Assembly (NCBI GenBank): GCA_964570595.1
Contig: CAZMZL010000003.1
Location: 1-47,270, forward strand
Direction of reading: 5' to 3'
DNA length: 47,270 nt
From: an uncultured Anaerolineaceae bacterium
GTDB lineage: Bacteria; Chloroflexota; Anaerolineae; Anaerolineales; E44-bin32
Shown here piece after piece: positions 1 to 24,368 of this stretch. The translations under genes were made by a program, and so were the position numbers. The notes below the pieces were generated by a model, which was given only the letters and a program-made list of their open reading frames with translations, did no database searches and had not been told where the DNA came from. The number at the start of each line of letters is the position of its first letter. Position 1 is the first letter of the stretch.

Positions 1-447
1 AACCTTCAATATGCCGCGCCGCTGGCCGAACAGGCGAATGTGATTTTCACCATCGAGATGCTCAATCCCATCGACAATCCAGGATATTTCCTGACGTCAA
101 CCGTTCAGGGGATTGAAATCGTAGCCGAAATCGACCATGCGCATATTAAATTTCAATTCGATACCTATCACGTCCAACTTATGGAGGGAAATGTGACCCA
201 GATGTTGGTCGATAACATGCCGAGTATCGGCCACATCCAGTTTGCGGATGTCCCCGGCCGGCACGAGCCGGGCACTGGAGAATTGAACTTCGGCAATATT
301 CAAGCCGCCGTTTCTGATGCCGGCTATAGCGGATACATTGGATTGGAATACATTCCCAAGGCGAAGGGCATGGAAGCCCTGGCGTGGTGTAATGTCGGAC
401 CGACAATCAATGAAGAACCATTACCCAATATAAGGAGCGAATCATGA
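1..447 (+). CDS. Hydroxypyruvate isomerase / 2-oxo-tetronate isomerase family protein (xylose-isomerase-like TIM barrel), 5'-truncated by the window edge
   Basis: Frame 1 is open from base 1 (NLQYAAPLAEQANVIFTIEMLNP...). The C-terminal half matches remembered E. coli Hyi motifs (IEPIN-like, Q(F/Y)DxYHxQxMEG, GHIQxAD.PGRHEPGTGE.N, GxxGxEYxP). Stop TGA 445-447 overlaps the next ATG (ATGA). Confidence 0.85.
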   Translation, partial: NLQYAAPLAEQANVIFTIEMLNPIDNPGYFLTSTVQGIEIVAEIDHAHIKFQFDTYHVQLMEGNVTQMLVDNMPSIGHIQFADVPGRHEPGTGELNFGNIQAAVSDAGYSGYIGLEYIPKAKGMEALAWCNVGPTINEEPLPNIRSES

Positions 448-1268
448 GACCACTTTTCAAAGTCGCACCCGAGGGGGGGCATCAATCCATATTTCAGTCT
501 GGGGAGGAGGATATTCACTGGTTGGGCTTAGAAGTCCTGCGTCTGGAACCCGGGGAATCGTGGGAGGGGTCGCTTGCCGATGAGGAAGCAGCCTTCGTGT
601 TGCTCAGCGGAGGGAGCGACATCAGCGTCGAAAACGGGAAGCGGGAGTCTTGGTCCGGTTTGGGGGCTCGGGGAGACATTTTCAGCGGTTCGGCGACGGC
701 AGTCTATGCGCCTCGCAAAAGTAATGTTAAAGTTGCGGCAACCTCTAAGCTTGAAATCGCCATTGCGAAAGCACCCTGTGAGGTTGATTTACCCGCGAGG
801 CTCATCCAACCAACCGATGTAAAAGTCGTATCGTCGGGGATGGCGAACTGGCGCCGCGATGTGCGTTTGATCATTCCCCCTGGATCCCCCATAAGCCAGC
901 GTCTCATCGTTGGAGAGACACTTAATCCACCGGGTAATTGGTCCGGGATTCCGCCTCACAAACACGATCAGGTGACGGAAGAGGAAAACTTCCTGGAGGA
1001 GTTCTACCTTTTCAAAGCCAAGCCAGCTGACAGTTATGGCCTTCAATTAATGTACAAGGATGGAGAGGGTCAGGGTCATATCGTCGGCAATGATGATGTC
1101 ACCGTGATGCTGAGTGGGTACCATCCCACGGTCGCTTCTCCGGGCACGACGATCTGCTATCTATGGGTGCTTTCAGGCGAAGACAAAGGCTACAAAATTG
1201 CGATCGATCCGCGCTTTGGGTGGGTGAGCAATGCCGAAGCGGTGTTAAAGGAAGAGCAGCAAGGTTAG
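444..1268 (+). CDS. iolB: 5-deoxy-glucuronate isomerase (IolB, KduI/IolB cupin family)
   Basis: GNWSGIPPHKHDQ...EENFLEEFYLF and GYHPT closely match remembered B. subtilis IolB (GNWSSYPPHKHDQ..., GYHP). AAGGAG lies 6 nt upstream of the ATG. ATGA overlap with the upstream gene. Confidence 0.85.
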   Translation: MRPLFKVAPEGGHQSIFQSGEEDIHWLGLEVLRLEPGESWEGSLADEEAAFVLLSGGSDISVENGKRESWSGLGARGDIFSGSATAVYAPRKSNVKVAATSKLEIAIAKAPCEVDLPARLIQPTDVKVVSSGMANWRRDVRLIIPPGSPISQRLIVGETLNPPGNWSGIPPHKHDQVTEEENFLEEFYLFKAKPADSYGLQLMYKDGEGQGHIVGNDDVTVMLSGYHPTVASPGTTICYLWVLSGEDKGYKIAIDPRFGWVSNAEAVLKEEQQG

Positions 1269-1285
1269 GAGAGCGATGAGTTAAA

Positions 1286-2167
1286 ATGATGAAACCATAC
1301 GGCATCATTCCCGCGATGGTGACACCACTCACCAACGATGATGAGATCAACGAATCCGCATTACGAAAGCTGACCAATCATTTGATCGACGGAGGATCGC
1401 ATGGTTTATTCGCCGTAGGGAGTCAGGGGGAGTTTTGGGCTTTTTCGGCTGACGAGAAACGCCGCATCACAGAAATCGTTGTGGATGAGGCGAATGGTCG
1501 CACGTCCGTCTATGCAGGAACGGCTGCGATCACGACGAGAGAAGCCGTTGCACTTACCAAAGACGCTGAGGCCATCGGCGTGGATGCAGTTTCGATCCTG
1601 ACGCCATACTTTCTCTCTCCAAGCGAGCGCGAACTGTACGATCATTACCGGACCATCGCAGAAGCGACCTCCCTGCCCATCGTACTCTACAGCAATCCCG
1701 CCCGTACGGGTGTGAACATCTCGCCGGGATTACTCAGCCAATTGGCTGAGATTGACAACATTGTTGGGATAAAGGATTCAAGCGGAGATTTACAGCTTAT
1801 GGCGCAATATGTTCGAGTTGCCCCTGATGATTTCTCCGTACTGATGGGGAGGGACACGCTCATCCTTGCAGGACTGATCTATGGGGCGAAGGGCTCGATC
1901 GCTGCGACGGCGAATGTTCGACCGGATCTCGTGGCGAGTATTTATGAGCGTTTCATCGCCGGTGACATCGCTGGGGCGCGCGAATCTCAAGATGCGCTGG
2001 CTCCCCTACGACTCGCATTTTCCTGGGGGACCTTTCCGGTGGTCATCAAGGAGGCCCTCGACCTTATGGGGTTGGAAGCAGGCCCTTCAAGGGCGCCTGT
2101 AGGTCCCATGACACTGGAGAAGCGTGAAGCGTTGAAAGAAGTATTAAAAGAAATGGGAGTTCTTTAA
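1286..2167 (+). CDS. DapA/N-acetylneuraminate-lyase family class I aldolase (dihydrodipicolinate synthase-like; possible 2-keto-3-deoxy-acid aldolase)
   Basis: N-terminus GIIPAMVTPLTNDDEINESALRKLTNHLIDGGSHGLFAVGSQGEF is the typical DapA-family signature. An IVGIKDSSGD Schiff-base lysine region is present. 293 aa. Confidence 0.85.
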   Translation: MMKPYGIIPAMVTPLTNDDEINESALRKLTNHLIDGGSHGLFAVGSQGEFWAFSADEKRRITEIVVDEANGRTSVYAGTAAITTREAVALTKDAEAIGVDAVSILTPYFLSPSERELYDHYRTIAEATSLPIVLYSNPARTGVNISPGLLSQLAEIDNIVGIKDSSGDLQLMAQYVRVAPDDFSVLMGRDTLILAGLIYGAKGSIAATANVRPDLVASIYERFIAGDIAGARESQDALAPLRLAFSWGTFPVVIKEALDLMGLEAGPSRAPVGPMTLEKREALKEVLKEMGVL

Positions 2168-2185
2168 AAGCAGAGGAGTTAGTTG

Positions 2186-3235
2186 ATGAAGGGAAAAATG
2201 CGAGCTATTCAGAAGGTGCGACGTGAGCCAGGCTTCGACCTGGTTGAGGTCGATATCCCCGAGATCGCCTCGGAAGAAGTATTGGTAAAAGTACATGCTA
2301 CGGCGATCTGTGGGAGTGATGTGCATTTCTATAACTGGGATGATTTCGCAAAAAGCAAGCTCAATCCACCCATTACGATCGGACATGAGTTCGCTGGTGA
2401 GATTGTCGAAGTTGGGGACCGGGTGAAGCGATTTCAGTCCGGGGACCGAGTCGCCGCCGACAGCCATATCGTCTGCGGTGAGTGTGCCGTGTGCAAGATC
2501 GGCTTGCAGCATATCTGCCAGAACCTGAAGATCTTCGGCAATGAAACGGATGGCAGTTTTGCAGAGTACGTTGCCGTACCGGAGACGTCTTTGTGGCCGC
2601 TTGCAGATGATGTTTCTTTCGATATCGGCGCGATTCTCGAGCCGCTTGGGGGCGCTGTGCAAGCTGTGCTTGTGGAACCCGTCACTGCCAAGTCCGTGGC
2701 CATCTTTGGCGATGGTCCCATCGGATTGTTCGCTGTCGGCGTCGCTCGTGCTGCGGGCGCTCGCAAGATCTATCATGTCGGTGTGATCGAAGATCGCCTC
2801 GCTATCTCAAAGCAAATGGGCGCGGACGTGATTATTAATAACCTGAAGGAAGGAGTCGATGCCGTCCAGGTGATCCTTGATGGAACCGGGGGCGTTGGGG
2901 TTGACGTCGCCGTCGAGTTGGCCGGGGCGCATCAAACGAACAAACAGGCATTTGAGACCGTGCGCAAGGGCGGACGGGTGACCCTTTTCGGGATCTCTTC
3001 CACGCCAATGGAGTTCGACTTCAATTACTCCATCATCTTACGGCAGGTTCGAGCGCAGGGCGTGGCAGGACGGCACATGTGGGATACGTGGCATATGATG
3101 GACGGTCTACTCGAAGCCGGGCTCGATCCACAGCCCGTCATTACATGCGTGCTTCCAATGGAGCAGTGGGAAGATGGCTTGAAGCAAATGGTTGCTAAAG
3201 AATGCGGGAAGGTGATTATCAAGCCCCAACTCTAG
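2186..3235 (+). CDS. Zn-dependent medium-chain dehydrogenase (L-threonine 3-dehydrogenase / sorbitol / sugar 1-dehydrogenase-like)
   Basis: CGSDVH, GHEFAGEIVEVG and the structural-Zn cysteines CGECAVCKIGLQHIC are present, plus a Rossmann GDGPIGL. I prefer ATG 2186 (GAGGAG 7 nt upstream) over the tracked TTG at 2183. Confidence 0.85.
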   Translation: MKGKMRAIQKVRREPGFDLVEVDIPEIASEEVLVKVHATAICGSDVHFYNWDDFAKSKLNPPITIGHEFAGEIVEVGDRVKRFQSGDRVAADSHIVCGECAVCKIGLQHICQNLKIFGNETDGSFAEYVAVPETSLWPLADDVSFDIGAILEPLGGAVQAVLVEPVTAKSVAIFGDGPIGLFAVGVARAAGARKIYHVGVIEDRLAISKQMGADVIINNLKEGVDAVQVILDGTGGVGVDVAVELAGAHQTNKQAFETVRKGGRVTLFGISSTPMEFDFNYSIILRQVRAQGVAGRHMWDTWHMMDGLLEAGLDPQPVITCVLPMEQWEDGLKQMVAKECGKVIIKPQL

Positions 3236-3278
3236 CTATCCGAGATGAAGATTTATGCTGCATATCAGGAGTGATGCT

Positions 3279-4421
3279 ATGAGCAATGAAGAGAAGATTA
3301 ATTATGAAGAGATCGAGATTGTGGGCGATGGCCGCGGCACCATGCAGGGAGATTACCTTCTGAACAAAGATCGACCTATGGATCGCATCCGCTGGTTGCT
3401 GGAGTGTTTCCCGGAGTGGGGGCAATTCCTCAATCGGCAGATCGAAGAAACCGTAGTCGAAGAAGGTACTTTTGCCATGTGGTGGACGGGCGGTATGGGG
3501 TTTATCATCAAGTCTCCAGGCGGCGCCGTCCTCCTGGTGGATAATTACGCCGGGCCAGCGCACTACACGGAGTACGAATATTGCGGCGTGTGCCGCACGA
3601 GCGGATCGCCAACGATCGACTGGCTGCGACTCAACCCGCAGGTGATCGATATTTGGGGTTTCGAGACGCTCGATGGAGTCTTCTGCAGTCACCAGCATGC
3701 GGATCATACCGATATCTACACACTGAAAGCCGCCACACAGACGAGCGACTGTTCTTTTTATGCCCCGCTCTCATCCGTCGAGCGCATGCGCATATTTCAG
3801 GTTCCCGAGGATCGAATTAATCTCGTCCGTCCTGGCGAGAAATATCAAATCAAGGATGTGGAAATCGAGATCCTTCCCAACTATGATCGCATCGCCACGA
3901 TGACGGGCGGTCCCGGCGTCGAGACCAAACCAGGTCTACGTCGACCTTATGATGACGTTGCCGTGACCTTTTTCTTCAAGATCGGCGGCGTGAATCTGGC
4001 ACATCTCGCAGATACACTTTTTCAGAATGCCTACACGACGTTCAAACAGTACAACATTGATGTGATTACGTTCAACATCGGGACGAATGCGCCAGGCGCT
4101 ACGGATAAGATGACCCCATACGACGCAGTACGCATGGCTCAGACGATCGATGCAAAGGTCCTTATGCCCATGCACTGGGACAATTGGGGCAACACCTACG
4201 CGGATCCCGAAGAAGTTGTATGGGTTGCGGAGCGACATCTCCCGGAGGCGAAGATTGTCATTCCGGCCTGGGGCGTGAAGTGGGTCTATCCGAACGAAGC
4301 CGACATCGGTCGGATGAAGTGGGAAGACTGGCGCGAGCGCTATCGCCCGGAATACTCCTGGGAGTACGGCAAGCCAGCCGCAGAAGCGGCTGAAGAACGG
4401 GGAGAGTTCATACCCTATTAA
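3279..4421 (+). CDS. UlaG-like metallo-beta-lactamase-fold lactonase (L-ascorbate-6-phosphate lactonase family)
   Basis: ECFPEWGQFLNRQIEE..VEEGTFAMWWTGGMGFIIKSPGG parallels remembered E. coli UlaG ([36 protein letters not shown]). HQHADHTD metal motif. ITDKMT-like ATDKMTPYD and the MPMHWDNW tail are present. ATG 3279 has AGGAG 7 nt upstream; the tracked ATG at 3255 is possible. Confidence 0.8.
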   Translation: MSNEEKINYEEIEIVGDGRGTMQGDYLLNKDRPMDRIRWLLECFPEWGQFLNRQIEETVVEEGTFAMWWTGGMGFIIKSPGGAVLLVDNYAGPAHYTEYEYCGVCRTSGSPTIDWLRLNPQVIDIWGFETLDGVFCSHQHADHTDIYTLKAATQTSDCSFYAPLSSVERMRIFQVPEDRINLVRPGEKYQIKDVEIEILPNYDRIATMTGGPGVETKPGLRRPYDDVAVTFFFKIGGVNLAHLADTLFQNAYTTFKQYNIDVITFNIGTNAPGATDKMTPYDAVRMAQTIDAKVLMPMHWDNWGNTYADPEEVVWVAERHLPEAKIVIPAWGVKWVYPNEADIGRMKWEDWRERYRPEYSWEYGKPAAEAAEERGEFIPY

Positions 4422-4479
4422 CGAGGCGCGAGAAAGAACCATTCCGTCGATAAACGTTGACAGAAAGGGGAAGGTACGC

Positions 4480-5361
4480 ATGCAGAAGGTCGGGTTCATT
4501 GGTCTTGGGTTGATGGGGGGCCCGATGGCGGCGAACGTCGCCAGAGCAGGATTTCCGCTGATCGTATTCAACCGAAGCCCTGACAAGGCAGATCCAGTTG
4601 TTCAACTGGGCGCAAAACTCGCGGCCTCCCCAAAGGAAGTCGCAGATAACAGCGAAGTCGTCGTGATGATGTTGAGTGACGCCTCCGCCGTAAGGGCGGT
4701 TCTGGAAGGGGAGCTGGGTTTAGTGGCCGGGTCGGATGAGGGGCTGGTCGTGATCGATATGAGCACGGTGTCGCCAGATGAATCTCGCGGCACTGCCGCA
4801 CTCCTCAATGCGCATGGAATTCGCATGCTCGACGCGCCGGTCTACGGCAGCACAGGACCGGCAGCGGAAGGCACGCTGGGGATCATGGTGGGCGGGGACA
4901 AGGATCTTTTCGAATCGCAAAAATCCTTGCTGGGTGCGATGGGGAAGAACATCTTCTATATGGGCGATCAGGGAAGCGGGGCAGCCGTCAAGTTGTGCTT
5001 CAACCTGATGGTGGCGGGACAGGTGATTTCGCTCGCCGAGGCTATGGTCCTCGCGGCTAAGGCAGGGCTCGATCTCAAGCAGGTCGGCGAGGTGGTTACC
5101 TCCAGTGGAATCAATTCAAAATTGATCGAGCGAAAAATCGACAACATCGTCACGGACAACTATGCGCCGGCATTCCCGCTAAAACATATGCACAAAGATT
5201 TGGGCTTGATGGTGAATGCTTCAATCGATCTCGATGCGTCTCTACCCACGACGGGGTTAACGCATCAATTGTACACAGCAGCTCGAGCGTCCGGATTCGC
5301 AGAGGAAGATTTCGCGGCCGTCTTCAAGGTCCTTGCACAGATGTCTGCTGTGAAAGCATAA
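4480..5361 (+). CDS. 3-hydroxyisobutyrate dehydrogenase family NAD(P)-oxidoreductase (tartronate-semialdehyde / L-threonate / sulfolactaldehyde reductase-like)
   Basis: N-terminal VGFIGLGLMGGPMAANVARAG dinucleotide fold. Central GSGAAVKLCFN and C-terminal KDLGL motifs are typical of the GarR/MmsB/YihU family. Confidence 0.85.
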   Translation: MQKVGFIGLGLMGGPMAANVARAGFPLIVFNRSPDKADPVVQLGAKLAASPKEVADNSEVVVMMLSDASAVRAVLEGELGLVAGSDEGLVVIDMSTVSPDESRGTAALLNAHGIRMLDAPVYGSTGPAAEGTLGIMVGGDKDLFESQKSLLGAMGKNIFYMGDQGSGAAVKLCFNLMVAGQVISLAEAMVLAAKAGLDLKQVGEVVTSSGINSKLIERKIDNIVTDNYAPAFPLKHMHKDLGLMVNASIDLDASLPTTGLTHQLYTAARASGFAEEDFAAVFKVLAQMSAVKA

Positions 5362-5392
5362 GACGCTTGATAATGCCCGGGAGGTGCAACCA

Positions 5393-6265
5393 GTGAGCAA
5401 AGAAGTGAGGTATTACGCTCCGGATACGATGGAGGAAGCTCTCCAGATCTTAAAGGAGCACGGATCAACCGTCAGTGTGCTTGCGGGAGGAACGGATCTG
5501 GTCCGGGACATGAACCTTGAATTTAAGATACCTGACGGCATCATGTGGATTGGCAGGCTGGGACTCGAGTATGTCGAACCCGATGTCGACGTCATCCGCG
5601 TGGGCGCGGGCACAAGGATGCAAACGGCGGCATCCTCAAGCCTGATCCAGGAAAAAGCGCGTGCGCTTGCCGACGCGGCGGGAAAGATGGCGAGTCCTCC
5701 AGTCCGGTCTCTGGCGACGCTGGGCGGGAATCTGTGCAATGCTTCACCGGGTGCGGATACCGGCTGTGCGCTGTTGGGGCTGGATGCACAGGTCGTGTTG
5801 AAAAGTTTGTCCGGTGAGCGCGTGATCGAACTGCGGGAGTTTTTCACCGGGCCGAATGATACGGTGATCCATCCGGATGAGCTTATGACCGAGATACGCA
5901 TCCGACCTGTCGGGAATGAAGAAGGGTCATCCTATAAAAAGATCGGGCGCAGGAAGGCGATGACGTTAGCCGTGCTCAACACGACCGCACGCGTCAAATT
6001 GGACAGCGATGGCAACTGCGAGGCGGTGTACATCGCGGTAGGCGCGGCGGCACCGACACCGCTTCGGATCGAAAAAGCTGAAAAGCTCCTTGTCGGCCAA
6101 CCCTTTACCGAGGAAGTTATACGCGAAGCCGCGAAAATCGCGTCGGAGGAAATCAAACCGATCGATGATGTTCACGGAACGGTGTGGTATCGGCGCAAGG
6201 TCGCGCGGGTTCTTGTCGAACAGACATTGCGAGAAGCGGGCGGGCTCAACGGAGGCGTGAAATGA
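5393..6265 (+). CDS. Molybdenum hydroxylase FAD-binding (medium) subunit, CoxM/XdhB/NdhF-like
   Basis: Y.APDTMEEALQILKEHG....LAGGTDL and TLGGNLCNASPGAD are FAD_binding_5/CO_deh_flav_C signatures. GTG 5393 has GGGAGG 8 nt upstream; the tracked start is GTG 5384. The stop overlaps the next ATG (ATGA, 6262-6265). Confidence 0.85.
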   Translation: MSKEVRYYAPDTMEEALQILKEHGSTVSVLAGGTDLVRDMNLEFKIPDGIMWIGRLGLEYVEPDVDVIRVGAGTRMQTAASSSLIQEKARALADAAGKMASPPVRSLATLGGNLCNASPGADTGCALLGLDAQVVLKSLSGERVIELREFFTGPNDTVIHPDELMTEIRIRPVGNEEGSSYKKIGRRKAMTLAVLNTTARVKLDSDGNCEAVYIAVGAAAPTPLRIEKAEKLLVGQPFTEEVIREAAKIASEEIKPIDDVHGTVWYRRKVARVLVEQTLREAGGLNGGVK

Positions 6266-6729
6266 ATTACCCCATCACTTTTACACTCAACGGTGAACGA
6301 GTTGAGGTTGAAGCCCCCGCAACGGTGAACCTGCTCACCCTGCTGCGCGAAACCCTAGATCTGAAAGGGACAAAATTCGGCTGCGAGCAGGGCAACTGCG
6401 GCGCCTGCACGGTCAATATCGATGGCGAAGCCGTGAATTCATGCCTTGTGCTGGCGCTTACGGTCGATGGCAAAGAAGTAACCACGATCGAAGGGATCGG
6501 AACGCCGGAAGGACCCCATGCGCTGCAGAAGGCTTTTACAGAACACTACGGTGCGCAGTGCGGTTTCTGCACACCCGGCATGATCATGGCGTTGAAGCCA
6601 CTGGTCGAAAATCTTAAAGAACCCACTCGCGAAGATGTCGTTGAAGCGATTGTGGGGAACGTCTGTCGCTGCACGGGGTACAACAAAATCATCGAGTCGG
6701 TCCTGGCAGCTGCGGAAGAGACGAAGTAG
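6262..6729 (+). CDS. Molybdenum hydroxylase [2Fe-2S] (small) subunit, CoxS/XdhC-iron-sulfur/NdhS-like
   Basis: Two cysteine clusters are present: CEQGNCGACTV (plant-type) and CGFCTPGM...CRCTGY. The ATG at 6262 gives the usual MN..ITFTLNG start. The tracked upstream extension (6184-6261) is Arg-rich, overlaps the FAD subunit and is rejected. Confidence 0.9.
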   Translation: MNYPITFTLNGERVEVEAPATVNLLTLLRETLDLKGTKFGCEQGNCGACTVNIDGEAVNSCLVLALTVDGKEVTTIEGIGTPEGPHALQKAFTEHYGAQCGFCTPGMIMALKPLVENLKEPTREDVVEAIVGNVCRCTGYNKIIESVLAAAEETK

Positions 6730-6743
6730 CGGAGGAGATAATC

Positions 6744-9056: not shown

Positions 9057-9079
9057 GCGCTGCGCTTACAACCGCAGGG

Positions 9080-9103
9080 CGATGATGGTGGTCGACATCA
9101 TCG
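9080..9103 (+). other. 8-bp stem hairpin (CGATGATG-N8-CATCATCG) just after the Mo-hydroxylase genes
   Basis: The perfect inverted repeat was read directly. There is no following T-tract, so it is not a canonical intrinsic terminator. It lies in the only large gap (272 nt) of the operon. Confidence 0.3.
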
Positions 9104-9328
9104 AGCACAACATGGACATGGATCGAATCTTTGATCAGCGCCTGTATACCGTAGAAGGGCTTGCATCTCGGCGCACGGAATCTCCGATTTTAGTTGTCAA
9201 GGAGATTTGATCATGGTCGGTCAGAATCGGTCGATTGCCGCACCGGTTTAAGATAGAAGGTCAATCGTGACGAGAACTGGCTCTGATGCAAGCAGTTTCA
9301 ATCTGAATGGAGAAGCGGTAATTGCCTG

Positions 9329-12952: not shown

Positions 12953-13015
12953 TTTAAAAGAAAAATTGAAAGTGTTATTAGAGAATCAGATCTATCACTC
13001 AGAAGGGAAACGGAC

Positions 13016-14518
13016 ATGGCTAAAAATGACACTGTAACAACACTCCCTATGGTCATCGATGGAAAACAAGTTGCGGGAGCATCGAAGGAATTTATCGAAG
13101 TTGTGAATCCGTCGGATGGTGGAGTGGTCGGGAAGGTGCCCATCGCAAGCGAGGTGGAGATCGATGCTGCTGTTCAATCCTCCTATAATGCGTTCAAGGG
13201 GTGGCGCGATACTCCTGCAGTTGAACGAGCCGGTTATATGCTCAAGCTTATTCAGGGGATGCGAGACAACATCGACGACATCGCCCACGTACTCACCCGT
13301 GAACAAGGAAAACCTTTCCCCCAGGCGAAAGGCGAGATCGGCGGTTTCTGTGCAGTGATGGAATTCTATGCTCAGGAAGCGCGCCGTATCAGCGGCATGG
13401 TGCTGCAATCCGATCACCGTGATCGTTTCGTCTATGTGCTCCGCGAACCGCAAGGTGTCGTGGCCGCCATTCCTCCATGGAACGATCCGCTTCACCTGCT
13501 CAGCCGAATGATGGGTCCTGCTCTCGCTGCCGGCTGCACGGTCGTGGCCAAGCCGTCTTCGGACACCCCCATGGCTACCTTGATGATGGGACAAATTGCG
13601 GTCGATGTTGGCGTGCCGCCGGGGGTGATCAACGTGATCACGGGGCCGGGGGGGAAAGTGGGCGAAGCGCTCGTGCGTCATCCGAAAGTCGCACACGCCT
13701 CTCTGACCGGCAGCCTGCCTGGCGGTATTGCCGTGATGCAAGCTGCTTCAGAAGGGATGAAGCGCGTCACACTCGAACTGGGTGGGCAGTGCCCGTGCAT
13801 TGTCTGGGAGGACGCCGACATCGACAAGGCGGTTGATGCGCTTGTGTTCCAGGCATTCCGCGGCTGTGGCCAAGTATGCAACCGGGTCAATCGCGTCTAC
13901 GCGCATGAGAAGATCTATGATGAACTCGTCAAAAGGGTCGCCGAATTAGCCTCGCGCATCGTCGTCGGGGACGGATTTAAGGACGCTGTGGATATCGGCC
14001 CGCTCGTGAATACGCGTCAATTGGCATGGGTCACAGATCAGGTGGAGAAGGCCCTCTCCGAGGGCGCAAAAGTGCTCGCCGGCGGCGGACCTCTTACTGG
14101 AGAGGGTTTTGATGGCGGGAACTTCTTTGAGCCAACCGTCCTGGTGGACTGCAAACAAGACATGGAAATCATGCAGCAGGAGACGTTCGGTCCTGTACTG
14201 GCGTTCATGAAAGTCGGCGGGGACCTCGAGGGCGCATTTGAATATGCAAACGACGGTTGGAATGGACTTGCGGCCTACTTCTTCAGCCGCGACCAGAGAA
14301 ACTGTTTCCTGGCAGCGCGGCGGTTGACGGCCGGGTCGGTATGGATCAACGACATCCATGGATCGATGGTGCAGGCGCCCTATGGCGGCATGAAGCAAAG
14401 CGGCATGGGTCGCGAGCAGGGTGCCCTTGCAGTGGACGAGTATCTTGAGTGGAAGACGGTTTACCACGAGATGAGTTACGAATCACGCGGCGCACGAGCC
14501 TGTGTGCATCACAAATAA
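13016..14518 (+). CDS. NAD(P)+-dependent aldehyde dehydrogenase
   Basis: PPWNDP (FPxN-like), LELGGQCP (general-base Glu), FRGCGQVCNRVNRVY (catalytic Cys) and EETFGP-like QETFGPV are present. 500 aa. Confidence 0.9.
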   Translation: MAKNDTVTTLPMVIDGKQVAGASKEFIEVVNPSDGGVVGKVPIASEVEIDAAVQSSYNAFKGWRDTPAVERAGYMLKLIQGMRDNIDDIAHVLTREQGKPFPQAKGEIGGFCAVMEFYAQEARRISGMVLQSDHRDRFVYVLREPQGVVAAIPPWNDPLHLLSRMMGPALAAGCTVVAKPSSDTPMATLMMGQIAVDVGVPPGVINVITGPGGKVGEALVRHPKVAHASLTGSLPGGIAVMQAASEGMKRVTLELGGQCPCIVWEDADIDKAVDALVFQAFRGCGQVCNRVNRVYAHEKIYDELVKRVAELASRIVVGDGFKDAVDIGPLVNTRQLAWVTDQVEKALSEGAKVLAGGGPLTGEGFDGGNFFEPTVLVDCKQDMEIMQQETFGPVLAFMKVGGDLEGAFEYANDGWNGLAAYFFSRDQRNCFLAARRLTAGSVWINDIHGSMVQAPYGGMKQSGMGREQGALAVDEYLEWKTVYHEMSYESRGARACVHHK

Positions 14519-14530
14519 GGCCGTAAGATC

Positions 14531-15484
14531 ATGACCAAACCCGTCGTATTGCTTTATGAACCTATCCATGAGAGAGCCATGGCTCTTCTACAAAAGCAGG
14601 CGAATGTCCGCGTGGCCGCAAGCCTGGAGGAAGTTGATCTTATTAAAGACGTAACCGATGTGGACGGGATCATTATCCGAGCCAATGGAAAGGTCAGCCG
14701 AAAGATTATGGAGGCGGCCTCAAACTTGAAGGTCGTCGCTCGACATGGAACCGGGGTTGAGGCGATCGATCACGAGGCGGCAGCCGAGTTGGGCGTCGTC
14801 GTGGTGAACACGCCGGAAGCCAACGTGGAGTCCGTGGCAGAACAGTGCCTCGCGTTCATGATTGCCCTGGGCAAGCGACTGCTTGAATCGGATTCTGCGA
14901 TTCGGGCAGGTGATTGGGAGTCGCGCTACCGTCTGATCGGCACCGAGTTGCTGGGTAAAACGCTGGGTCTTGTGGGGTTCGGGCGAATTGGGCAGCGTGT
15001 GGCGGAGTTGTGTCATGCCTCCCTGTCCATGCCCATCAAGTATTTCGATGTCGTTCAATATCCCGGGGTCGAGAAGACGCTGGGCGCGACGAAAGCATCC
15101 CTGGAGGAGGTCCTCGCTCGTGCGGATTTTGTATCGATCCATGTGCCGCTTCTTGAAAATACCCGTGGGATCATCGGCGAAGTCGAGTTAAAACAGATGA
15201 AACCGACCGCGTTCCTCATCAATACTTCTCGGGGCCCCGTCGTGGACCAAGAGGCGCTCGTGGCCGCGCTCAAGCAGGGCTGGATCCGGGGGGCTGGACT
15301 GGATGTGTATGATCCGGAACCGCTGCCGGATGACAGCCCTCTTCTCGCGATGGATAACGTCGTACTCTCGCCTCACATGGCTTCGCATACGGACGAGGCC
15401 CTCTTTCGCATGGCCATGGTGATCGAAGATGTGCTCGCGGTCATCCGCGGGGAGGCGCCAAAATATCCGGTGGTCGTGACATAA
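14531..15484 (+). CDS. D-isomer-specific 2-hydroxyacid dehydrogenase (glyoxylate/hydroxypyruvate reductase / PGDH-like)
   Basis: GLVGFGRIGQRVA NAD motif. NTSRGPVVD with the catalytic Arg, and the SPHMAS His region are present. Confidence 0.9.
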   Translation: MTKPVVLLYEPIHERAMALLQKQANVRVAASLEEVDLIKDVTDVDGIIIRANGKVSRKIMEAASNLKVVARHGTGVEAIDHEAAAELGVVVVNTPEANVESVAEQCLAFMIALGKRLLESDSAIRAGDWESRYRLIGTELLGKTLGLVGFGRIGQRVAELCHASLSMPIKYFDVVQYPGVEKTLGATKASLEEVLARADFVSIHVPLLENTRGIIGEVELKQMKPTAFLINTSRGPVVDQEALVAALKQGWIRGAGLDVYDPEPLPDDSPLLAMDNVVLSPHMASHTDEALFRMAMVIEDVLAVIRGEAPKYPVVVT

Positions 15485-15517
15485 TGAGCGCATCCATAAC
15501 GAAATAGGAGAGTCAAG

Positions 15518-16435
15518 ATGGATAAACATTGGAATCAATATTGTACGGTGAGCATCGTGCATTTCATGGCCTATCCGAACACGATAGGTGGCGAAGGGCC
15601 CATCCTTGAAACGATCAGCAAGATCGCGGAAGACCCCTTTTTCACCGGCATCGAAATCGGTTGGATTAAGGATCCAAAAGTACGGGAAGATGCCAAAGCC
15701 ATCCTGGATCACGCGCATATTAAAGTTGGTTATGGCGCACAACCATCTCTTCTGCTCCAGGGTTTGAATCTGAACAGCCTTGACGAGGCAGAACGGGAAC
15801 AGGCCGTAAACCAACTGAAATCGAATGTCGATGAAGCGGTCGAGATGGGGGCGAAACGGGTTGGGTTCTTATCGGGCAAGGATCCGGGTGATGCGGACCG
15901 TCCTGCGGCGCTTGAAAAGTTGATCGTTTCGGTCAAAGAAGTATCCGGGTACGCACGCGAGAAGGGATTGGCGCTGGTCTGTGAGACCTTCGATCGGGAG
16001 ATCGACAAGAAATGTTTGATTGGTCCAAGTGATTATGCGGCGGGTTTTGCAGCAGCGGTGAAAGTGGACTACCCTGAGTTCGGACTCATGTACGATCTCA
16101 GCCACCAACCCCTGCTTTATGAAGAGGCCGAACCTGCGCTCACGCTTTTGAAAGATCACCTTGTGCATGCTCACGTAGGCAACGGTGTGGTGGACCCGGA
16201 CACACCTGGTTTTGGTGATATGCACCCGCGCTTTGGCTGGCCGGGCGGATGCAACGACGTCGACGAACTTGCTGATTTCATCGGCGCCCTGTTCACGGTC
16301 GGTTACCTGGCAGAGGGGAAAGATGAACTCCCCTGGGTTGGTTTCGAGGTGAAACCTCAGAATGAGAGAGAGACGTCCGAACAGATCATCGCGGGCACAA
16401 AACGAGTGTGGGCAGAAGCCTGGTCACGAGTATAA
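15518..16435 (+). CDS. Xylose-isomerase-like TIM-barrel protein (sugar phosphate isomerase/epimerase; IolE/IolH/IolI-like fold)
   Basis: AP_endonuc_2-type pattern: CETFDRE, YDLSHQ, HAHVGNG metal-ligand-like segments. AGGAGA SD. 305 aa. Confidence 0.75.
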   Translation: MDKHWNQYCTVSIVHFMAYPNTIGGEGPILETISKIAEDPFFTGIEIGWIKDPKVREDAKAILDHAHIKVGYGAQPSLLLQGLNLNSLDEAEREQAVNQLKSNVDEAVEMGAKRVGFLSGKDPGDADRPAALEKLIVSVKEVSGYAREKGLALVCETFDREIDKKCLIGPSDYAAGFAAAVKVDYPEFGLMYDLSHQPLLYEEAEPALTLLKDHLVHAHVGNGVVDPDTPGFGDMHPRFGWPGGCNDVDELADFIGALFTVGYLAEGKDELPWVGFEVKPQNERETSEQIIAGTKRVWAEAWSRV

Positions 16436-16474
16436 GGATTTTAATCATACATCATCGGCACCAAGGAGACGTCA

Positions 16475-18832
16475 GTGAATGCATCCATCAAGCAAATAGA
16501 TAAGCGTTATCAAGCGTTGGAGAAGAATCTTGACCAGTGGCAGAAGACCGCCGACATCATTGATCAGCTCATCGATATCATTCTGAACTATCGGCAAAGC
16601 GGCCATCCGGGAGGATCTCGATCAAAGGTGCATGCGATGGTGAGTCTGTTGCTCAGCGGGGCCATGCGTTGGGATGTCCGAGATCCGGAGAAGAGATTTG
16701 GCGACCGTTTTATCCTTGGGGCAGGGCATACCATCCCGCTCCTTTACTGCACGTTTGCGGTTCTGAACGAAGCCATGCGGATGAAACATGAGCAGACAGG
16801 GGACAAAAAATACCTTATCCGAAACGCGGAGCGCCGAGCGCTTTACTGGGAAGATCTGCTCCAATTCCGTCGGCGCGGTGGTCTCTCGGGTCATGCCGAA
16901 ATGGAAGGCAAGACTCTCTTCCTGAAATTCAACACCGGTCCTTCCGGTCATGGCAGTCCTGCGGCTGCAGGCGAAGCCCTGGCGCTTAAGCGGGCCGGTT
17001 GTGGTGAGGTGAAAGTTTTCTGTTTTGAAGGTGAAGCGGGTCTCACGCCCGGTTCCACGCACGAGACCATGAACTCGGCCTGGGGGCTGGGTTTGGATAA
17101 TTTGTACTATCTCGTGGATTGGAACGACTATGGCATCGACGATCACAGCGTAAGCGACGCGGTTTATGGCACGCCGACGGATTGGTTTGCCTCGCATGGC
17201 TGGAGGGTCGTGGGCACGGACGAGGGGAGTGAATGGGGGCCGGTCTTGAGGACGATTCTCGAGTTGGCCATGGGGGCCCGCGAGGATGGTGTCCCGTCGG
17301 CGGCCTGGTTTAAGACGAGAAAGGGACGCGGGTATCTCAAGTATGACAACGCTTCCCACGGGACGCCGCATCCGATGAACAGCGAACTCTTCTGGAAGTT
17401 AAAGGAACCATTTGCGGAAAAATATGGGGTTGAGTTTACGAACTTCGGCGGCGGTCCACCAGAGAGCCCGGAAGCTTTTGAGGAAGAATTTGAAGCAAAC
17501 CTGCGCGCGGTGATGGATGTGCTTCGCCAGGACCAAACTCTGGTCGATTATCTGTCGGATGCGCTCGTGGAAATTGGCGAAAGCGTTCCTCTCGAGGTCA
17601 AGGGTTTTCTACTCGGAAAGCAAGGGAACCCATTCGAGGATCCGGCGCTTTATGATTATGAGAATTACCCCGCGGATCTTTTCGCAGAACCGGGTGAGAA
17701 GGTCGCCAATCGCGCCGCACTGGCGAAGTGGGGCGCGTGGGTGAACGCATTCGGCGCGACCAAATACGGTCGACCCTTGTTCCTTGTCAGCTCAGCCGAT
17801 CTCGCCGGTTCCACGAACATCAGCGGCTTTGCGGACAAATATAAAGATTTCGAGGGTTATGGCTGGTACAAGCGTTACGGTACGGATGCAGGCGTGCTCC
17901 TTCCGCAGGAGATCACGGAGTTCGCCAATGCGGGCATCATGGCCGGATTGGCGACCGTTAATCTCGCTGATGACCCCGAAAAATATTTCGATGGATTCTG
18001 GGCGGCATCCTCGACCTACGGTTCCTTCTCCTACCTGATGTATGGGCTGATGCGATTGTTCAGCCAACTGGCGCAAGATTGCGATCTAAAGGTCGGCAAG
18101 ACGCTATGGGTGGCGGGCCATTCTGGACCCGAAACGGCAGATGACAGTCGCACGCATTTCGGCATCTTTTCGCCTGGGGTCACTCAGCTCTTCCCGGAGG
18201 GGCAGGTCATCAATTTACATCCCTGGGAGCACAATGAAGTCCCGGTGCTCCTGGGCGCCGCGCTTAAGACTGAAGTTCCCATTATCGCACTCCATCTCAC
18301 CCGCCCACCGATTGAAATCCCCGATCGCGAGAAGATTGGGATGCCCTCCCATTATGAAGCTGCAAAGGGAGCCTACGTGGTGCGGGATTATAAGGCGGGT
18401 GCTCCCCGAGGGGGCGCTGTTATCGTTCAGGGAACAAGCGCGATGGCGAACATCGTGAAAATCCTGCCTGACCTGGACGAGAAGAAGCTCAACGTCAAGA
18501 TCATCTATGCTGCCAGCCCGCAGCTCTTCGCCCGACAGCCGGTCGAATACCGGGAGAGCGTGATCACATCAGCCGATCGGGTAGATTCGACCGTGATCAC
18601 GACTCAAGGTCGCTGGTTGATGCACGACTGGCTGTTCAACAAGGTATCTGAGGCGTACTCGCTTTCCGCCGATTGGGACGACCGTTGGCGAACCGGCGGG
18701 AACCTCGAGGAAGTGATTGAAGAGGCTCAGCTATCTCCTGAGTGGATTTTGAAAGGCATTGAGAGATTTGTAAAGGAACGGGAAGGACGCCTGAACCGCC
18801 TATCGGCTGAATTGGAATCGGCTCGAATGTGA
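16475..18832 (+). CDS. Long, divergent transketolase-family thiamine-diphosphate enzyme (785 aa)
   Basis: SGHPGGS, DRFILGAGH and NTGPSGHGSPAAAGEALA are present. The TPP/Mg segment reads FEGEAGLTPGSTHE...LVDWNDYGID, where canonical TK has GDGxxxEG...DxNxxxID. GTG start with AAGGAG 7 nt upstream. Confidence 0.75.
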   Translation: MNASIKQIDKRYQALEKNLDQWQKTADIIDQLIDIILNYRQSGHPGGSRSKVHAMVSLLLSGAMRWDVRDPEKRFGDRFILGAGHTIPLLYCTFAVLNEAMRMKHEQTGDKKYLIRNAERRALYWEDLLQFRRRGGLSGHAEMEGKTLFLKFNTGPSGHGSPAAAGEALALKRAGCGEVKVFCFEGEAGLTPGSTHETMNSAWGLGLDNLYYLVDWNDYGIDDHSVSDAVYGTPTDWFASHGWRVVGTDEGSEWGPVLRTILELAMGAREDGVPSAAWFKTRKGRGYLKYDNASHGTPHPMNSELFWKLKEPFAEKYGVEFTNFGGGPPESPEAFEEEFEANLRAVMDVLRQDQTLVDYLSDALVEIGESVPLEVKGFLLGKQGNPFEDPALYDYENYPADLFAEPGEKVANRAALAKWGAWVNAFGATKYGRPLFLVSSADLAGSTNISGFADKYKDFEGYGWYKRYGTDAGVLLPQEITEFANAGIMAGLATVNLADDPEKYFDGFWAASSTYGSFSYLMYGLMRLFSQLAQDCDLKVGKTLWVAGHSGPETADDSRTHFGIFSPGVTQLFPEGQVINLHPWEHNEVPVLLGAALKTEVPIIALHLTRPPIEIPDREKIGMPSHYEAAKGAYVVRDYKAGAPRGGAVIVQGTSAMANIVKILPDLDEKKLNVKIIYAASPQLFARQPVEYRESVITSADRVDSTVITTQGRWLMHDWLFNKVSEAYSLSADWDDRWRTGGNLEEVIEEAQLSPEWILKGIERFVKEREGRLNRLSAELESARM

Positions 18833-18869
18833 TCCCGCTCTTTCTCTTCATCTCCGTTTTACGTTGTGT

Positions 18870-18904
18870 TGTACAGGGGCAGTCATCCAAGCTGCCCCTG
18901 TACA
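18870..18904 (+). other. Perfect 13-bp stem hairpin (TGTACAGGGGCAG-N9-CTGCCCCTGTACA) between the transketolase-like gene and tauE
   Basis: Read directly. There is no U-tract on either strand, so a processing/stability or attenuator element is more likely than a classical terminator. Confidence 0.5.
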
Positions 18905-18945
18905 TGTCCAGCAGCCTTGATCCATGGATATGACGGCGCACTTCG

Positions 18946-19686
18946 ATGAATGATGGAATGCTGATTTCGGCCGTCATCGGTCTGAGCGCATTTCTTGTCG
19001 GTTTCTCGAAAGGCGGAGTGGGAGGCATGATGGGTGCGCTCATCACTGCCTTGCTGGCGCTCGTCTTGCCAGTGGACGTGGCGATAGGCATGTTGCTGCC
19101 GCTCTTGATCGTCGGAGATGTATTTGCCGTGGGGGTGCACTGGCGCAAATGGGAGGGCGGACTCATCCGCATACTCATCCCTGGGGCATTGCTGGGGACG
19201 CTGATCGCAACGCTCTTTATCACCAGTGTATCCGTAGATGTGCTCCGCAAAGCCCTGGGTGTCATCATCGCGGTCTTTGTGATCTATCAGGTGTTCGGAC
19301 GCCGAACCATCAAGTCGCATCGATATAAATCCCGCCGGTGGCATGGTTTCGTCGCAGGTGGGATCTCGGGATCCACCTCAACACTGGCGCATGTCGGCGG
19401 ACCTCCGGTGACGGTATATCTCTTAATGCAAAACATGACGCCAAGAACTCTGGTAGCAACTTCAGCCTTGTTCTTCAGTATTCTGAATTTGATGAAACTC
19501 CCCGGTTATTTGATCGCTCAGCTTGTGGTTCCGTCGATGATGCGAGAGCTTCTATGGGCGACGCCCTTAATCCCGCTGGGAGTCTGGGTCGGGCGATGGG
19601 CGGTGGACCGCGTCGACCGGAATATATTCGATGGTGTAATGACGTTCCTCCTGGCGATCTCGGCAGGTATGCTTGTGCTGATGTAA
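18946..19686 (+). CDS. TauE/SafE (DUF81) family anion exporter
   Basis: All-membrane 246-aa protein with a duplicated GxxGGxxG-type segment (GFSKGGVGGMMGALI; GGISGSTSTLAHVGGPPV), typical of the sulfite/organosulfonate exporter family. Confidence 0.85.
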   Translation: MNDGMLISAVIGLSAFLVGFSKGGVGGMMGALITALLALVLPVDVAIGMLLPLLIVGDVFAVGVHWRKWEGGLIRILIPGALLGTLIATLFITSVSVDVLRKALGVIIAVFVIYQVFGRRTIKSHRYKSRRWHGFVAGGISGSTSTLAHVGGPPVTVYLLMQNMTPRTLVATSALFFSILNLMKLPGYLIAQLVVPSMMRELLWATPLIPLGVWVGRWAVDRVDRNIFDGVMTFLLAISAGMLVLM

Positions 19687-24342: not shown

Positions 24343-24368
24343 GGGGTATCTGATGTCCTTTATGAGTT

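Follow-up and report, generated by a model that had tools for sequence, protein, structure and literature searches.

The first 19,686 bases of a contig from an uncultured Anaerolineaceae bacterium (CAZMZL010000003.1, assembly GCA_964570595.1) encode a dense run of isomerases, dehydrogenases, a predicted lactonase, a molybdenum (Mo) hydroxylase and a transketolase-like enzyme, which raises the question of what compound this set of proteins would degrade. The whole 47,270-bp contig of this metagenome-assembled genome (MAG) was analyzed and is referred to below as the window; the assembly cuts the gene cluster at its 5' end. With modest confidence, we favor a tightly packed and conserved operon that would break down an imported sugar acid or lactone by a non-phosphorylative oxidative route centered on the Mo dehydrogenase.

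Gene layout and conservation

Bases 1–19686 contain 18 intact open reading frames (ORFs), all on the plus strand, where the initial annotation had counted 19 genes. Successive spacings are −4, 17, 15, 19, 58, 22, −4, 14, 0, 272, −17, −4, 63, 12, 33, 39 and 113 nucleotides (nt). These computed gaps reproduce the strand and spacing features described in that annotation, namely three ATGA start/stop overlaps, a 17-nt overlap between the AAA ATPase gene and the gene of a von Willebrand factor A (VWA) protein if the latter starts at TTG 10179, and two larger gaps at 9057–9328 (272 nt) and 18833–18945 (113 nt); the remaining junctions are 0–63 nt long or overlapping. The ORF lengths equal those of homologues on other contigs, hence the genes appear intact and none is a pseudogene. 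The base composition is uniform over 1–19686. A promoter and terminator scan of this region returned no more predictions than expected from shuffled sequence and none in either larger gap, and no tRNA genes or Rfam families were found in the window.

The Pfam families, which bear out every family named in the initial annotation, comprise AP_endonuc_2 (cut by the contig end), KduI/IolB, DHDPS, two Zn-dependent medium-chain dehydrogenases (MDR1 and MDR2), a metallo-beta-lactamase fold and NAD_binding_2/11; FAD_binding_5 with CO_deh_flav_C, Fer2/Fer2_2, Ald_Xan_dh_C with MoCoBD_1, and MoCoBD_2 in the Mo part; and AAA_5 with CbbQ_C, a CobT_C VWA, Aldedh, 2-Hacid_dh, a second AP_endonuc_2, Transketolase_N/pyr/C and TauE. 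Function-level calls were based on the curated NCBIfam cut-offs, and scores are given below as score versus cut-off. Only two proteins reach such a cut-off, MDR1 as an L-threonine 3-dehydrogenase (TDH; 382.3 vs 380) and the DapA-like protein as a dapA product (239 vs 206), which agrees with the earlier description of the locus as an unusual mosaic. Judged by gene context, and for the DapA-like protein also by its catalytic residues, both calls are ill-suited.

Neighborhoods in other genomes were seeded on the N-terminal half of the Mo large subunit (MoL). A scan with an IolB alignment, restricted to one genome per species, returned 80 loci (designated by L numbers), and a search of metagenomes starting from the AAA ATPase contributed the complete two-arm clusters L095, L103 and L111 as well as partial ones. 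A naive longest-ORF caller mis-called antisense ORFs in high-GC loci; synteny was instead determined with tblastn. The left arm of the cluster consists of the genes for a Hyi-like isomerase, an IolB-like protein, (the DapA-like protein and MDR1), a UlaG-like lactonase, (a dehydrogenase of the HIBADH family), the FAD and iron–sulfur subunits, MoL, the C-terminal half of the Mo large subunit (MoM), the AAA ATPase and the VWA protein, brackets denoting optional genes. It occurs in ~25 species-level MAGs, of which nearly all bear the label Anaerolineales, Anaerolineae, Chloroflexia or Chloroflexota, and in several metagenome contigs; over these MAGs the identity is 54–74% for the IolB-like and 76–84% for the UlaG-like protein. 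In the neighborhoods seeded on MoL the order from the Hyi-like to the transketolase-like (TK-like) gene is kept at 70–89% identity. The two-arm order, in which the left arm is followed by (MDR2), an aldehyde dehydrogenase (ALDH), a 2-hydroxyacid dehydrogenase (2HADH), a TIM barrel and the TK-like gene, is found in at least 8 loci (L005, L006, L007, L009/L104, L016+L090, L095, L103 and L111) at 54–93% identity. The nearest loci belong to Anaerolineales in the case of IolB (74%), and one partial TK-like gene at 89% is labelled Deltaproteobacteria.

Upstream of the left arm, relatives carry a GntR/FCD regulator gene, then a short-chain dehydrogenase (SDR) of the gluconate-5-dehydrogenase/KduD type or a psicose-epimerase-like TIM barrel, and then a CUT2 ATP-binding cassette (ABC) importer (Peripla_BP_4, ABC_tran and BPD_transp_2) directly upstream of the Hyi-like gene; some genomes add further TIM barrels. 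The expectation that the operon goes on upstream of base 1 is thus supported. One of the importer's binding proteins is encoded at L016:5337–6548, and L005 carries an orthologue. Comparison of the importer's binding protein with solved structures returned only generic CUT2 ribose, polyol and furanose binders and no clue to the ligand. Bases 1–19686 are the larger 3' part of an operon whose full form comprises the regulator, the SDR or TIM barrel, the importer, the 17–18 genes seen here and, often as the last gene, an XdhC-family chaperone.

Several modules are variably present. The DapA-like and MDR1 genes are gained or lost jointly, the HIBADH gene is absent from L006, L021, L023, L028, L031, L032 and L037, MDR2 is absent from L090, L095, L103 and L111, and the entire right arm may be missing; L008 retains only MDR1, the UlaG-like and HIBADH genes and the Mo enzyme. 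In L009/L104 a second 2HADH and a MOFRL glycerate 2-kinase, an enzyme with no counterpart in the window, take the place of the TK-like gene. The junction between MoM and AAA is a hot spot for insertions, with a gluconokinase-like FGGY gene in L091 (1352–2857) and a GFO_IDH_MocA gene, which is confined to some relatives, plus a TIM barrel in L028 (15863–17977) and L032. In the window this junction is the non-coding 272-nt gap, which retains no remnant of the FGGY, GFO or TIM genes of L091 and L028 and does not resemble the spacers of relatives at the nucleotide level. The gap contains a 37-codon ORF that has no known relative. In a version labelled Chloroflexia (L021:18867–20218 and L023) the genes after that of the VWA protein encode a 314-aa protein that matches neither Pfam nor NCBIfam and a cyclophilin-like protein (PF04126), and the ALDH-2HADH-TIM-TK arm is lacking.

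This modularity, the gap and insertion hot spot between MoM and AAA, locus L008 and the occurrence of the TK-like gene in unrelated contexts would suit a series of independent operons lying side by side, one for a glycerate pathway, one for aldonates and one for a Mo hydroxylase whose heterocycle or aldehyde substrate has no connection with the rest. We consider such an arrangement rather improbable. The order is kept down to ~55–60% identity in many genomes, a single regulator and importer lie upstream, and the spacing suits translational coupling. Moreover, XdhC serves the Mo enzyme yet follows the TK-like gene in L090, L095, L103 and L111, which brackets the right arm into one unit, and where the Mo enzyme is replaced by an aldehyde oxidoreductase (AOR) or an ALDH, the replacement stands beside the same IolB and DapA partners, indicating functional coupling. 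The gene order, which is shared by ~25 species-level genomes, is not unique to the window genome, and the chance juxtaposition that the initial annotation had named as a possibility did not hold up. On the strength of the conserved order, the position of XdhC and the spacing, we take the gene set to be one unit and not a chance fusion of operons.

The molybdenum hydroxylase and the left arm

The Mo hydroxylase is encoded by four genes. The FAD subunit (bases 5384–6265; 293 aa; PF00941 and PF03450) is NdhF/CoxM-like, and the subunit with two [2Fe-2S] clusters (6262–6729; ~155 aa; PF01799 and PF00111) is NdhS/CoxS-like; ATG 6262 is the most likely start of the latter because its homologues have 155–157 aa. 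The large subunit is split into the NdhL-like MoL (6744–8054; 436 aa) and the NdhM-like MoM (8055–9056; 333 aa; PF20256), and this split, with a 0-nt gap, is kept in all relatives. The four-subunit F-S-L-M order with a split Mo subunit is that of the nicotinate dehydrogenase NdhFSLM, and the large subunit of the latter (PDB 3hrd chain A) is the best match of MoL in the Protein Data Bank (PDB), with an E-value of 5.4e-70 as compared with 1e-48 for the next entry, 1rm6. The initial annotation had the protein as a hydroxylase of the xanthine dehydrogenase (XDH)/aldehyde oxidoreductase type; it is indeed a Mo hydroxylase, with the NdhFSLM architecture rather than that of a generic XDH. By motif reading, without a computed alignment, the MoM motif KGIGEMT has a Glu where XDH-family enzymes carry the catalytic Glu, the MoL motif GGGFGAKN places an Asn at the position of XDH Glu802, and the RGFG loop of MoL is XDH/AOR-like.

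The MoxR-type AAA+ ATPase (9329–10195; AAA_5 and CbbQ_C) always follows the Mo subunits, with 72–89% identity among loci, and is itself always followed by the VWA protein (10179–11942; PF11775, 5.6e-19), which has the lowest conservation in the cluster (33–76%). In a comparison with CoxD/CoxE-like maturation pairs, which are encoded beside Mo hydroxylases and needed to assemble their active site, the VWA domain proved to be of the CobT_C type and not of the CoxE Pfam family. By analogy with such pairs, the AAA+/VWA pair probably matures the Mo hydroxylase. A 2245-bp metagenome contig (L094, VAPB011048097.1) matches the AAA/VWA junction of the window with 100% protein identity; it probably represents the same population sampled independently, or the source metagenome. 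The XdhC-family protein, a chaperone for insertion of the Mo cofactor, is encoded in the window at 42520–43635 on the plus strand (PF02625 and PF13478), 23.7 kb from the operon. It is 44–47% identical to the XdhC proteins encoded directly after the TK-like gene in L090, L095, L103 and L111 and is a probable accessory factor of the Mo hydroxylase; given the position of these four homologues, the linkage has apparently been lost in the window genome.

The resemblance to the Eubacterium barkeri NdhFSLM enzyme (PDB 3HRD), which extends to the subunit order and to the division of the Mo subunit into parts of ~430 and ~330 aa, opens the possibility that the operon serves the catabolism of an N-heterocycle, nicotinate or a related and possibly sugar-borne compound, with the Mo enzyme hydroxylating the ring and the other enzymes processing cleavage products. 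The cluster also contains a HIBADH-family enzyme, the family to which the 2-(hydroxymethyl)glutarate dehydrogenase of the nicotinate pathway belongs. Nevertheless, we regard this explanation as very unlikely. Enamidase, 6-hydroxynicotinate reductase, the B12-dependent mutase and other enzymes of nicotinate fermentation are not among the Pfam families found, and the other nicotinate-pathway families were likewise absent from the window and its relatives. The importer and most of the enzymes are of carbohydrate type, and the context is carbohydrate-catabolic rather than that of nicotinate fermentation; an AAA+/VWA pair is added to the four subunits; and the Glu802 position, as far as the motifs can be read, is an Asn.

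More distant IolB-like genes lie in smaller clusters that lack the Mo enzyme and contain another aldehyde oxidizer instead. This is a tungsten AOR in L030 (Chloroflexi; IolB, DapA, AOR) and in the Bacillota loci L041 (GntR, AOR, IolB, ABC importer) and L042 (Hyi, GntR, AOR, IolB, 2HADH, DapA), and an ALDH in L011–13 and L019 (Syntrophobacteraceae and a spirochaete). The alternation of the Mo enzyme, tungsten AOR and ALDH beside IolB argues that the Mo enzyme acts on an aldehyde or hemiacetal carbon and not on a heterocycle.

A UlaG-like lactonase is predicted at 3255–4421. UlaG is its closest characterized relative (PDB 2wyl, 1.2e-52), the score on the UlaG model PRK11709 is 213.7 vs 306, and it ranks, with MoM and the AAA ATPase, among the best-conserved members of the cluster (74–93% identity). 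The near-invariant adjacency of the UlaG-like and Mo genes fits the sugar-dehydrogenase-plus-lactonase logic of deoxyribose oxidation in Pseudomonas simiae, which proceeds through a Mo-dependent IorAB-like dehydrogenase, a lactonase, an SDR, an enzyme that cleaves beta-keto acids (BKACE) and glycerate kinase (PMC6365646). That route is non-phosphorylative, couples sugar oxidation by a Mo-hydroxylase-family enzyme to a lactonase and yields glycerate as an end product, as the route proposed here would. The P. simiae enzyme, however, is a two-subunit IorAB protein, probably periplasmic and linked to cytochrome c, whereas the enzyme described here is a cytoplasmic FAD/FeS/split-Mo protein of the NdhFSLM type; moreover, the cluster has no BKACE and its lactonase is of another family.

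The remaining left-arm proteins are isomerases, an aldolase and dehydrogenases. The Hyi/OtnI-like TIM-barrel isomerase (1–447; AP_endonuc_2) is cut at its 5' end by the contig end and measures ~256–272 aa in relatives; a full-length orthologue (L005:2897–3667) scores 242 vs 353 on the Hyi and 223 vs 325 on the OtnI model and is thus neither equivalog. It is followed by an IolB/KduI-family cupin (444–1268; PF04962, 1.4e-61), an aldose–ketose isomerase of the keto-uronate type that scores 189 vs 205 on the IolB model TIGR04378 and has a single PDB match, the 'IolB-like' protein 2qjv. The DapA/NAL-family class I pyruvate aldolase (1286–2167; PF00701; TIGR00674) keeps the Schiff-base Lys (GIKDSSG) and the equivalents of Tyr133 and Arg138, with GTTGE altered to GSQGE and a Phe as the equivalent of Tyr107. 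It may be a catabolic pyruvate aldolase of class I that would bind an aldehyde bearing a carboxyl group. A role as true dihydrodipicolinate synthase (DHDPS) was considered and rejected, as the equivalents of the catalytic triad are altered and the context is catabolic. MDR1 (2183–3235) is very close to archaeal TDHs (PDB 3gfb/2d8a, 1.6e-88); it passes model NF003808 and falls short of TIGR00692 (359 vs 458), and a true L-threonine dehydrogenase is unlikely from the context. The beta-hydroxyacid dehydrogenase of the HIBADH/GarR/LtnD family (4480–5361; PF03446 and PF14833) has its best score on tartronate semialdehyde reductase (TSR; 253.7 vs 340) and scores 190.8 vs 350 on L-threonate dehydrogenase.

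The IolB-like protein, as the second gene product, brings a variant myo-inositol or cyclitol operon into consideration, in which inosose formed by a dehydrogenase would pass through dehydration by a TIM-barrel enzyme and hydrolytic ring opening to a (deoxy)uronate, IolB would isomerize the latter, and aldehyde oxidation would replace the kinase and aldolase steps of IolC and IolJ. The importer is of the CUT2 type used for inositol, IolM is the second-best model of MDR1 and MDR2 (250 and 171 bits, respectively), the TIM barrels give weak IolO and IolE matches, and the Chloroflexia version adds a GFO_IDH_MocA oxidoreductase and extra TIM barrels. Against this, the IolB-like protein itself stays under the IolB cut-off, the models of IolG, IolE, IolD, IolC and IolJ are reached by none of the 18 proteins, the window contains no kinase or class II aldolase, the second TIM barrel hardly matches IolE or IolI, and the thiamine diphosphate (ThDP) enzyme belongs to the TK-like and not to the acetolactate-synthase-like IolD family. 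The regulator is GntR/FCD, and the UlaG-like, Hyi-like and HIBADH proteins would be left unexplained. A cyclitol operon is therefore judged unlikely.

The right arm and the tartrate-type lead

The right arm begins with MDR2 (11939–12952), a Zn-dependent sugar-acid dehydrogenase of the RspB/IdnD type (PDB 4ilk RspB, 5e-42; PDB 6dkh L-idonate 5-dehydrogenase, 6e-38), followed by a succinate semialdehyde dehydrogenase (SSADH)-like NAD(P)-dependent ALDH (13016–14518; PF00171, 1e-155), for which SSADH is the best model at 455 vs 646. The 2HADH (14531–15484; PF02826 and PF00389) is of the D-2-hydroxyacid glyoxylate/hydroxypyruvate/2-ketoaldonate reductase type; its best NCBIfam model is glyoxylate/hydroxypyruvate reductase, and its PDB matches are 1wwk, glyoxylate reductases and 9m0t, annotated as a probable 2-ketogluconate reductase. 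A divergent xylose-isomerase-like TIM barrel, TIM2 (15518–16435; PF01261, 5.7e-18), has only weak PDB and NCBIfam matches and no informative relative. It adjoins the TK-like gene in every TK-bearing cluster locus, and the pair also occurs in L001 and L002; the adjacency does not extend to L003, L132 and L133.

The TK-like ThDP enzyme (16475–18832; 785 aa) is 26% identical to E. coli TktA and has ~120 extra residues. In the TK-like alignment TktA residues H26, H66, H100, H261, E411, H461, D469, H473, R520 and S385 are invariant, of which we take S385 and R520 to be phosphate-binding and the others catalytic. Thus, the ThDP/metal motif and the catalytic His/Glu/Asp set are present in the alignment with TktA; N185 is kept, GDG is changed to GEG (GE(A/G)G in the alignment), and R358 is replaced by Trp. 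The protein is not a transketolase equivalog, as all models remain under their cut-offs (best 107 vs 488) and the phosphate-binding set is incomplete. Within the family, identity stays at 71% or more over MAGs labelled NC10, Chloroflexota, Anaerolineae and Deltaproteobacteria, which is unusually high for an accessory catabolic enzyme. Outside the operon the gene occurs alone in an unrelated context, after 2HADH and HIBADH genes (NC10) and after an Fe-dependent alcohol dehydrogenase gene. In L001:3559–14023, which contains the closest relative of the TK-like protein (91%), the TIM2-TK pair stands beside bona fide OtnK and OtnC genes that exceed their cut-offs. Further neighbors in L001 are a partial 2HADH, a serine hydroxymethyltransferase, an Asp/Glu racemase, a B12-binding protein and a Mo hydroxylase distinct from the present one (31% identical). 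Downstream of the TK-like gene there lie genes for a tyrosine integrase and a maturase of group II introns, which suggests a recent rearrangement.

The genes at 11939–18832 (MDR2, ALDH, 2HADH, TIM2 and TK-like) span four families assigned to or proposed for the plant route from ascorbate to tartrate. L-idonate 5-dehydrogenase is presumed to belong, with E. coli IdnD, to the MDRs. The leading specific candidate for the substrate, put forward with low confidence and by analogy, is the series of L-ascorbate, 2-keto-L-gulonate, L-idonate and 5-keto-D-gluconate. That the operon cleaves one of these compounds between C4 and C5 is doubtful. In such a scheme a non-phosphorylating UlaG-like ascorbate lactonase would open the ring, and the Hyi/OtnI-like enzyme would act as a 3-keto/2-keto isomerase, so that lactonase and 2-oxo/3-oxo isomerase together would convert ascorbate to 3-keto-L-gulonate and then to 2-keto-L-gulonate. 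A 2-ketogulonate reductase and an idonate dehydrogenase would follow, a non-canonical, dedicated transketolase would split 5-ketogluconate to tartrate semialdehyde, and a semialdehyde dehydrogenase would complete the route, with the NdhFSLM-type Mo sugar-acid dehydrogenase coupled to it. The gluconate-5-dehydrogenase-like SDR and the gluconokinase-like FGGY protein of some relatives would fit the chemistry of ascorbate and 5-ketogluconate.

In plants, the 2-keto-L-gulonate reductase is a 2HADH-superfamily enzyme (PMC6827314), a transketolase acting on 5-keto-D-gluconate and a tartaric semialdehyde dehydrogenase are both putative, and no enzyme is given for the step from ascorbate to 2-keto-L-gulonate (PMC11066805). 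The grapevine route leads from L-ascorbate to L-tartrate by way of 2-keto-L-gulonate, L-idonate and 5-keto-D-gluconate. The likeness to it exists only at the level of the MDR2, ALDH, 2HADH, (TIM2) and TK-like families. The grapevine route is also biosynthetic, whereas the cluster would be catabolic and is embedded with a Mo enzyme, an IolB-like protein and an aldolase.

The last gene encodes a TauE/SafE-family (DUF81) anion exporter (18946–19686; PF01925). The exporter is present as the initial annotation had it; its membership of the cluster is only loose. It was detected in 3 of ~8 loci, adjoining the TK-like gene on the same strand here and in L091 and lying near it on the opposite strand in L090, and was not detected in L095, L103 and L111, where XdhC comes after the TK-like gene. 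An exporter of C2/C3 sulfonates would suit a route for a sulfo-sugar of the sulfoquinovose type, with a dehydrogenase, a lactonase, an aldolase or transketolase and a sulfolactaldehyde reductase or dehydrogenase. The position of TauE after the TK-like gene in two loci, the TK-like enzyme itself and a HIBADH score of 174 bits on the sulfolactaldehyde reductase model are compatible with this, as is the SSADH-like ALDH, since sulfolactaldehyde dehydrogenases are SSADH-like. Such a route is nonetheless highly improbable, given the scattered occurrence of TauE, the sulfoglycolysis-related models, all of which are missed by far, and the absence of a sulfoquinovosidase; nor was a sulfonate-cleaving enzyme seen in any locus. 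A GH31 protein of L030 was examined as a candidate sulfoquinovosidase and rejected, as it scores 605.8 vs 606 as an alpha-xylosidase and 272 vs 553 as a YihQ-type enzyme; it may not belong to the cluster.

Proposed route and comparison with described pathways

In the sugar-acid route that we favor, a substrate at the oxidation level of a keto-aldonate, uronate or lactone would enter by the CUT2 system. The Hyi/OtnI-like enzyme would move the carbonyl group between a 2-oxo-3-hydroxy acid and a 2-hydroxy-3-oxo acid, and the IolB/KduI-like enzyme between a terminal ketol and an aldehyde, both isomerases thereby exposing an aldehyde or hemiacetal. The FAD/FeS/Mo hydroxylase, matured by XdhC and probably by the AAA+/VWA pair, would oxidize the exposed carbon, and the UlaG-like lactonase would open an imported lactone or one produced by the Mo oxidation. 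In the version found in the window, the DapA-family class I aldolase would then release pyruvate and a short aldehyde-acid. The right arm, together with the Hyi-like and HIBADH enzymes, may funnel C2–C4 fragments (tartronate or tartrate semialdehyde, hydroxypyruvate and glycolaldehyde) towards glycerate, which would be phosphorylated where a kinase is encoded. All substrates and the order of the steps are deduced from the families of the enzymes.

A carbohydrate or sugar-acid substrate is supported by the CUT2 importer and GntR/FCD regulator, the KduD-like SDR, the RspB/IdnD-like MDR2, the FGGY kinase of L091 and the MOFRL kinase of L009/L104. A C2/C3 module is supported by the best models of three proteins, hydroxypyruvate isomerase for the Hyi-like enzyme, TSR for HIBADH and glyoxylate/hydroxypyruvate reductase for 2HADH, and by the neighbors of the TK-like gene outside the operon (2HADH with HIBADH, the Fe-dependent alcohol dehydrogenase, or OtnK and OtnC). 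Of the substrates proposed in the initial annotation, an acid sugar (or lactone) is the better supported, and a polyol or cyclitol less so.

Several observations weigh against this reading. None of the proteins passes a model named for a sugar-acid function, and the substrates are assigned by family analogy. There is no sugar-acid dehydratase of a known type, which leaves a hole before the aldolase step, and the window encodes no kinase. Among solved structures, the Mo subunit comes closest to an N-heterocycle hydroxylase and not to an aldehyde oxidoreductase, MDR1 is far nearer to L-threonine dehydrogenase, and the DapA-like protein nearer to DHDPS, than to any sugar enzyme, and CUT2 binding proteins usually take neutral sugars or polyols. 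The TK-like family, found in unrelated contexts, could be a general-purpose enzyme, and different versions of this modular cluster may act on different substrates. Finally, the operon is a prediction from gene order and spacing.

None of the described systems accounts for the gene set. The statement in the initial annotation that no described pathway fits was upheld, as the defining features of known systems were lacking and a literature search found no description of the set; its remark that IolC/D/G/J, an Entner–Doudoroff (ED) dehydratase and a kinase are missing from the window agrees with the model and Pfam scans. The closest likeness is to the archaeal non-phosphorylative ED pathway, in which glyceraldehyde is oxidized by an aldehyde dehydrogenase or an aldehyde oxidoreductase and the product is passed to a MOFRL glycerate kinase (PMC2063504). 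Shared at the family level are an MDR, a lactonase activity, an aldolase of the DapA/NAL fold and a three-cofactor Mo hydroxylase; the alternation of Mo enzyme, tungsten AOR and ALDH, which is the pattern of archaeal glyceraldehyde oxidation, and the MOFRL kinase of L009/L104 are further points in common. The archaeal enzymes are an MDR glucose dehydrogenase, a lactonase, a KD(P)G aldolase of the NAL family, a Mo- or tungsten-dependent glyceraldehyde oxidoreductase or an ALDH, and the glycerate kinase. Nonetheless, neither the window nor the DNA upstream of the cluster in relatives contains a dehydratase of the enolase superfamily or the IlvD/Edd type, and the archaeal equivalogs remain out of reach (2-keto-3-deoxygluconate aldolase NF040954, 137 vs 390; glyceraldehyde dehydrogenase alpha, beta and gamma NF041018, NF041019 and NF041020, 216 vs 790, 191 vs 350 and 159 vs 290). 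The cluster also differs in its lack of a gluconate dehydratase, the UlaG-fold lactonase, the split Mo subunit, the bacterial host and the addition of the AAA/VWA pair, IolB, Hyi and the TK-like enzyme.

The Ula system of ascorbate utilization does not apply, as the cut-off of PRK11709 for the L-ascorbate-6-phosphate lactonase UlaG is missed, no phosphotransferase system (PTS; UlaABC) and no UlaD, UlaE or UlaF are present, and relatives import through an ABC system. The modules for glycerate (gcl-hyi-glxR-glxK) and for the tetronates L-threonate and D-erythronate (LtnD/OtnI/OtnK/OtnC) share a Hyi/OtnI-like enzyme, a TSR/LtnD-like HIBADH, a hydroxypyruvate-reductase-like 2HADH and a ThDP enzyme. 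The latter, however, is TK-like and not Gcl-like, and Gcl is absent. On the tetronate side, OtnI and LtnD are under their cut-offs, and OtnK and OtnC are absent from the window and were seen only in L001; on the glycerate side, Hyi and TSR are under theirs and glycerate kinase occurs only in L009/L104. As a proposed oxidative non-phosphorylative sugar-acid operon, the cluster is unusual in its split NdhFSLM enzyme with AAA+/VWA proteins, its UlaG-fold lactonase without a PTS and its divergent transketolase.

Outside 1–19686 only XdhC evidently belongs to the operon. A metal-homeostasis group at 21548–29743 comprises a CDF exporter (21548–22423, plus strand), an FTR1 iron permease (22649–23473, plus), FeoB (24697–26985, minus), a metallophosphoesterase (27724–29061, plus) and a DtxR-type repressor fused to a FeoA domain (29084–29743, plus). 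A PadR-family regulator (31454–31870, minus) precedes a HAAS-domain protein (30377–31405, minus), and the pair may work as a membrane-linked sensor and regulator unrelated to the operon. Beside XdhC lie an amidohydrolase (44089–45189, minus) and a URO-D-like protein (45243–46406, plus); a URO-D-like gene is also found near the TK-like gene in L003 and L004. Several further oxidoreductases are encoded elsewhere in the window.

Sediments, peat and digesters harbor abundant degraders from the Anaerolineae and other Chloroflexota, most of them uncultured, and a widely conserved catabolic operon of 20-plus genes that has no assignable substrate marks a gap in what is known of their diet. The analysis also brings to notice a 785-aa TK-like family that is at least 71% identical over several phyla. 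If the C4/C5 cleavage proposed for the ascorbate series is true, the operon would provide natural enzymes for two still-putative steps of plant tartrate formation, which would be of biochemical and biotechnological interest. If the reading of the Mo enzyme is true, it would be a second bacterial example of a Mo hydroxylase recruited to carbohydrate catabolism, and a rare split NdhFSLM enzyme with its own AAA+/VWA pair.

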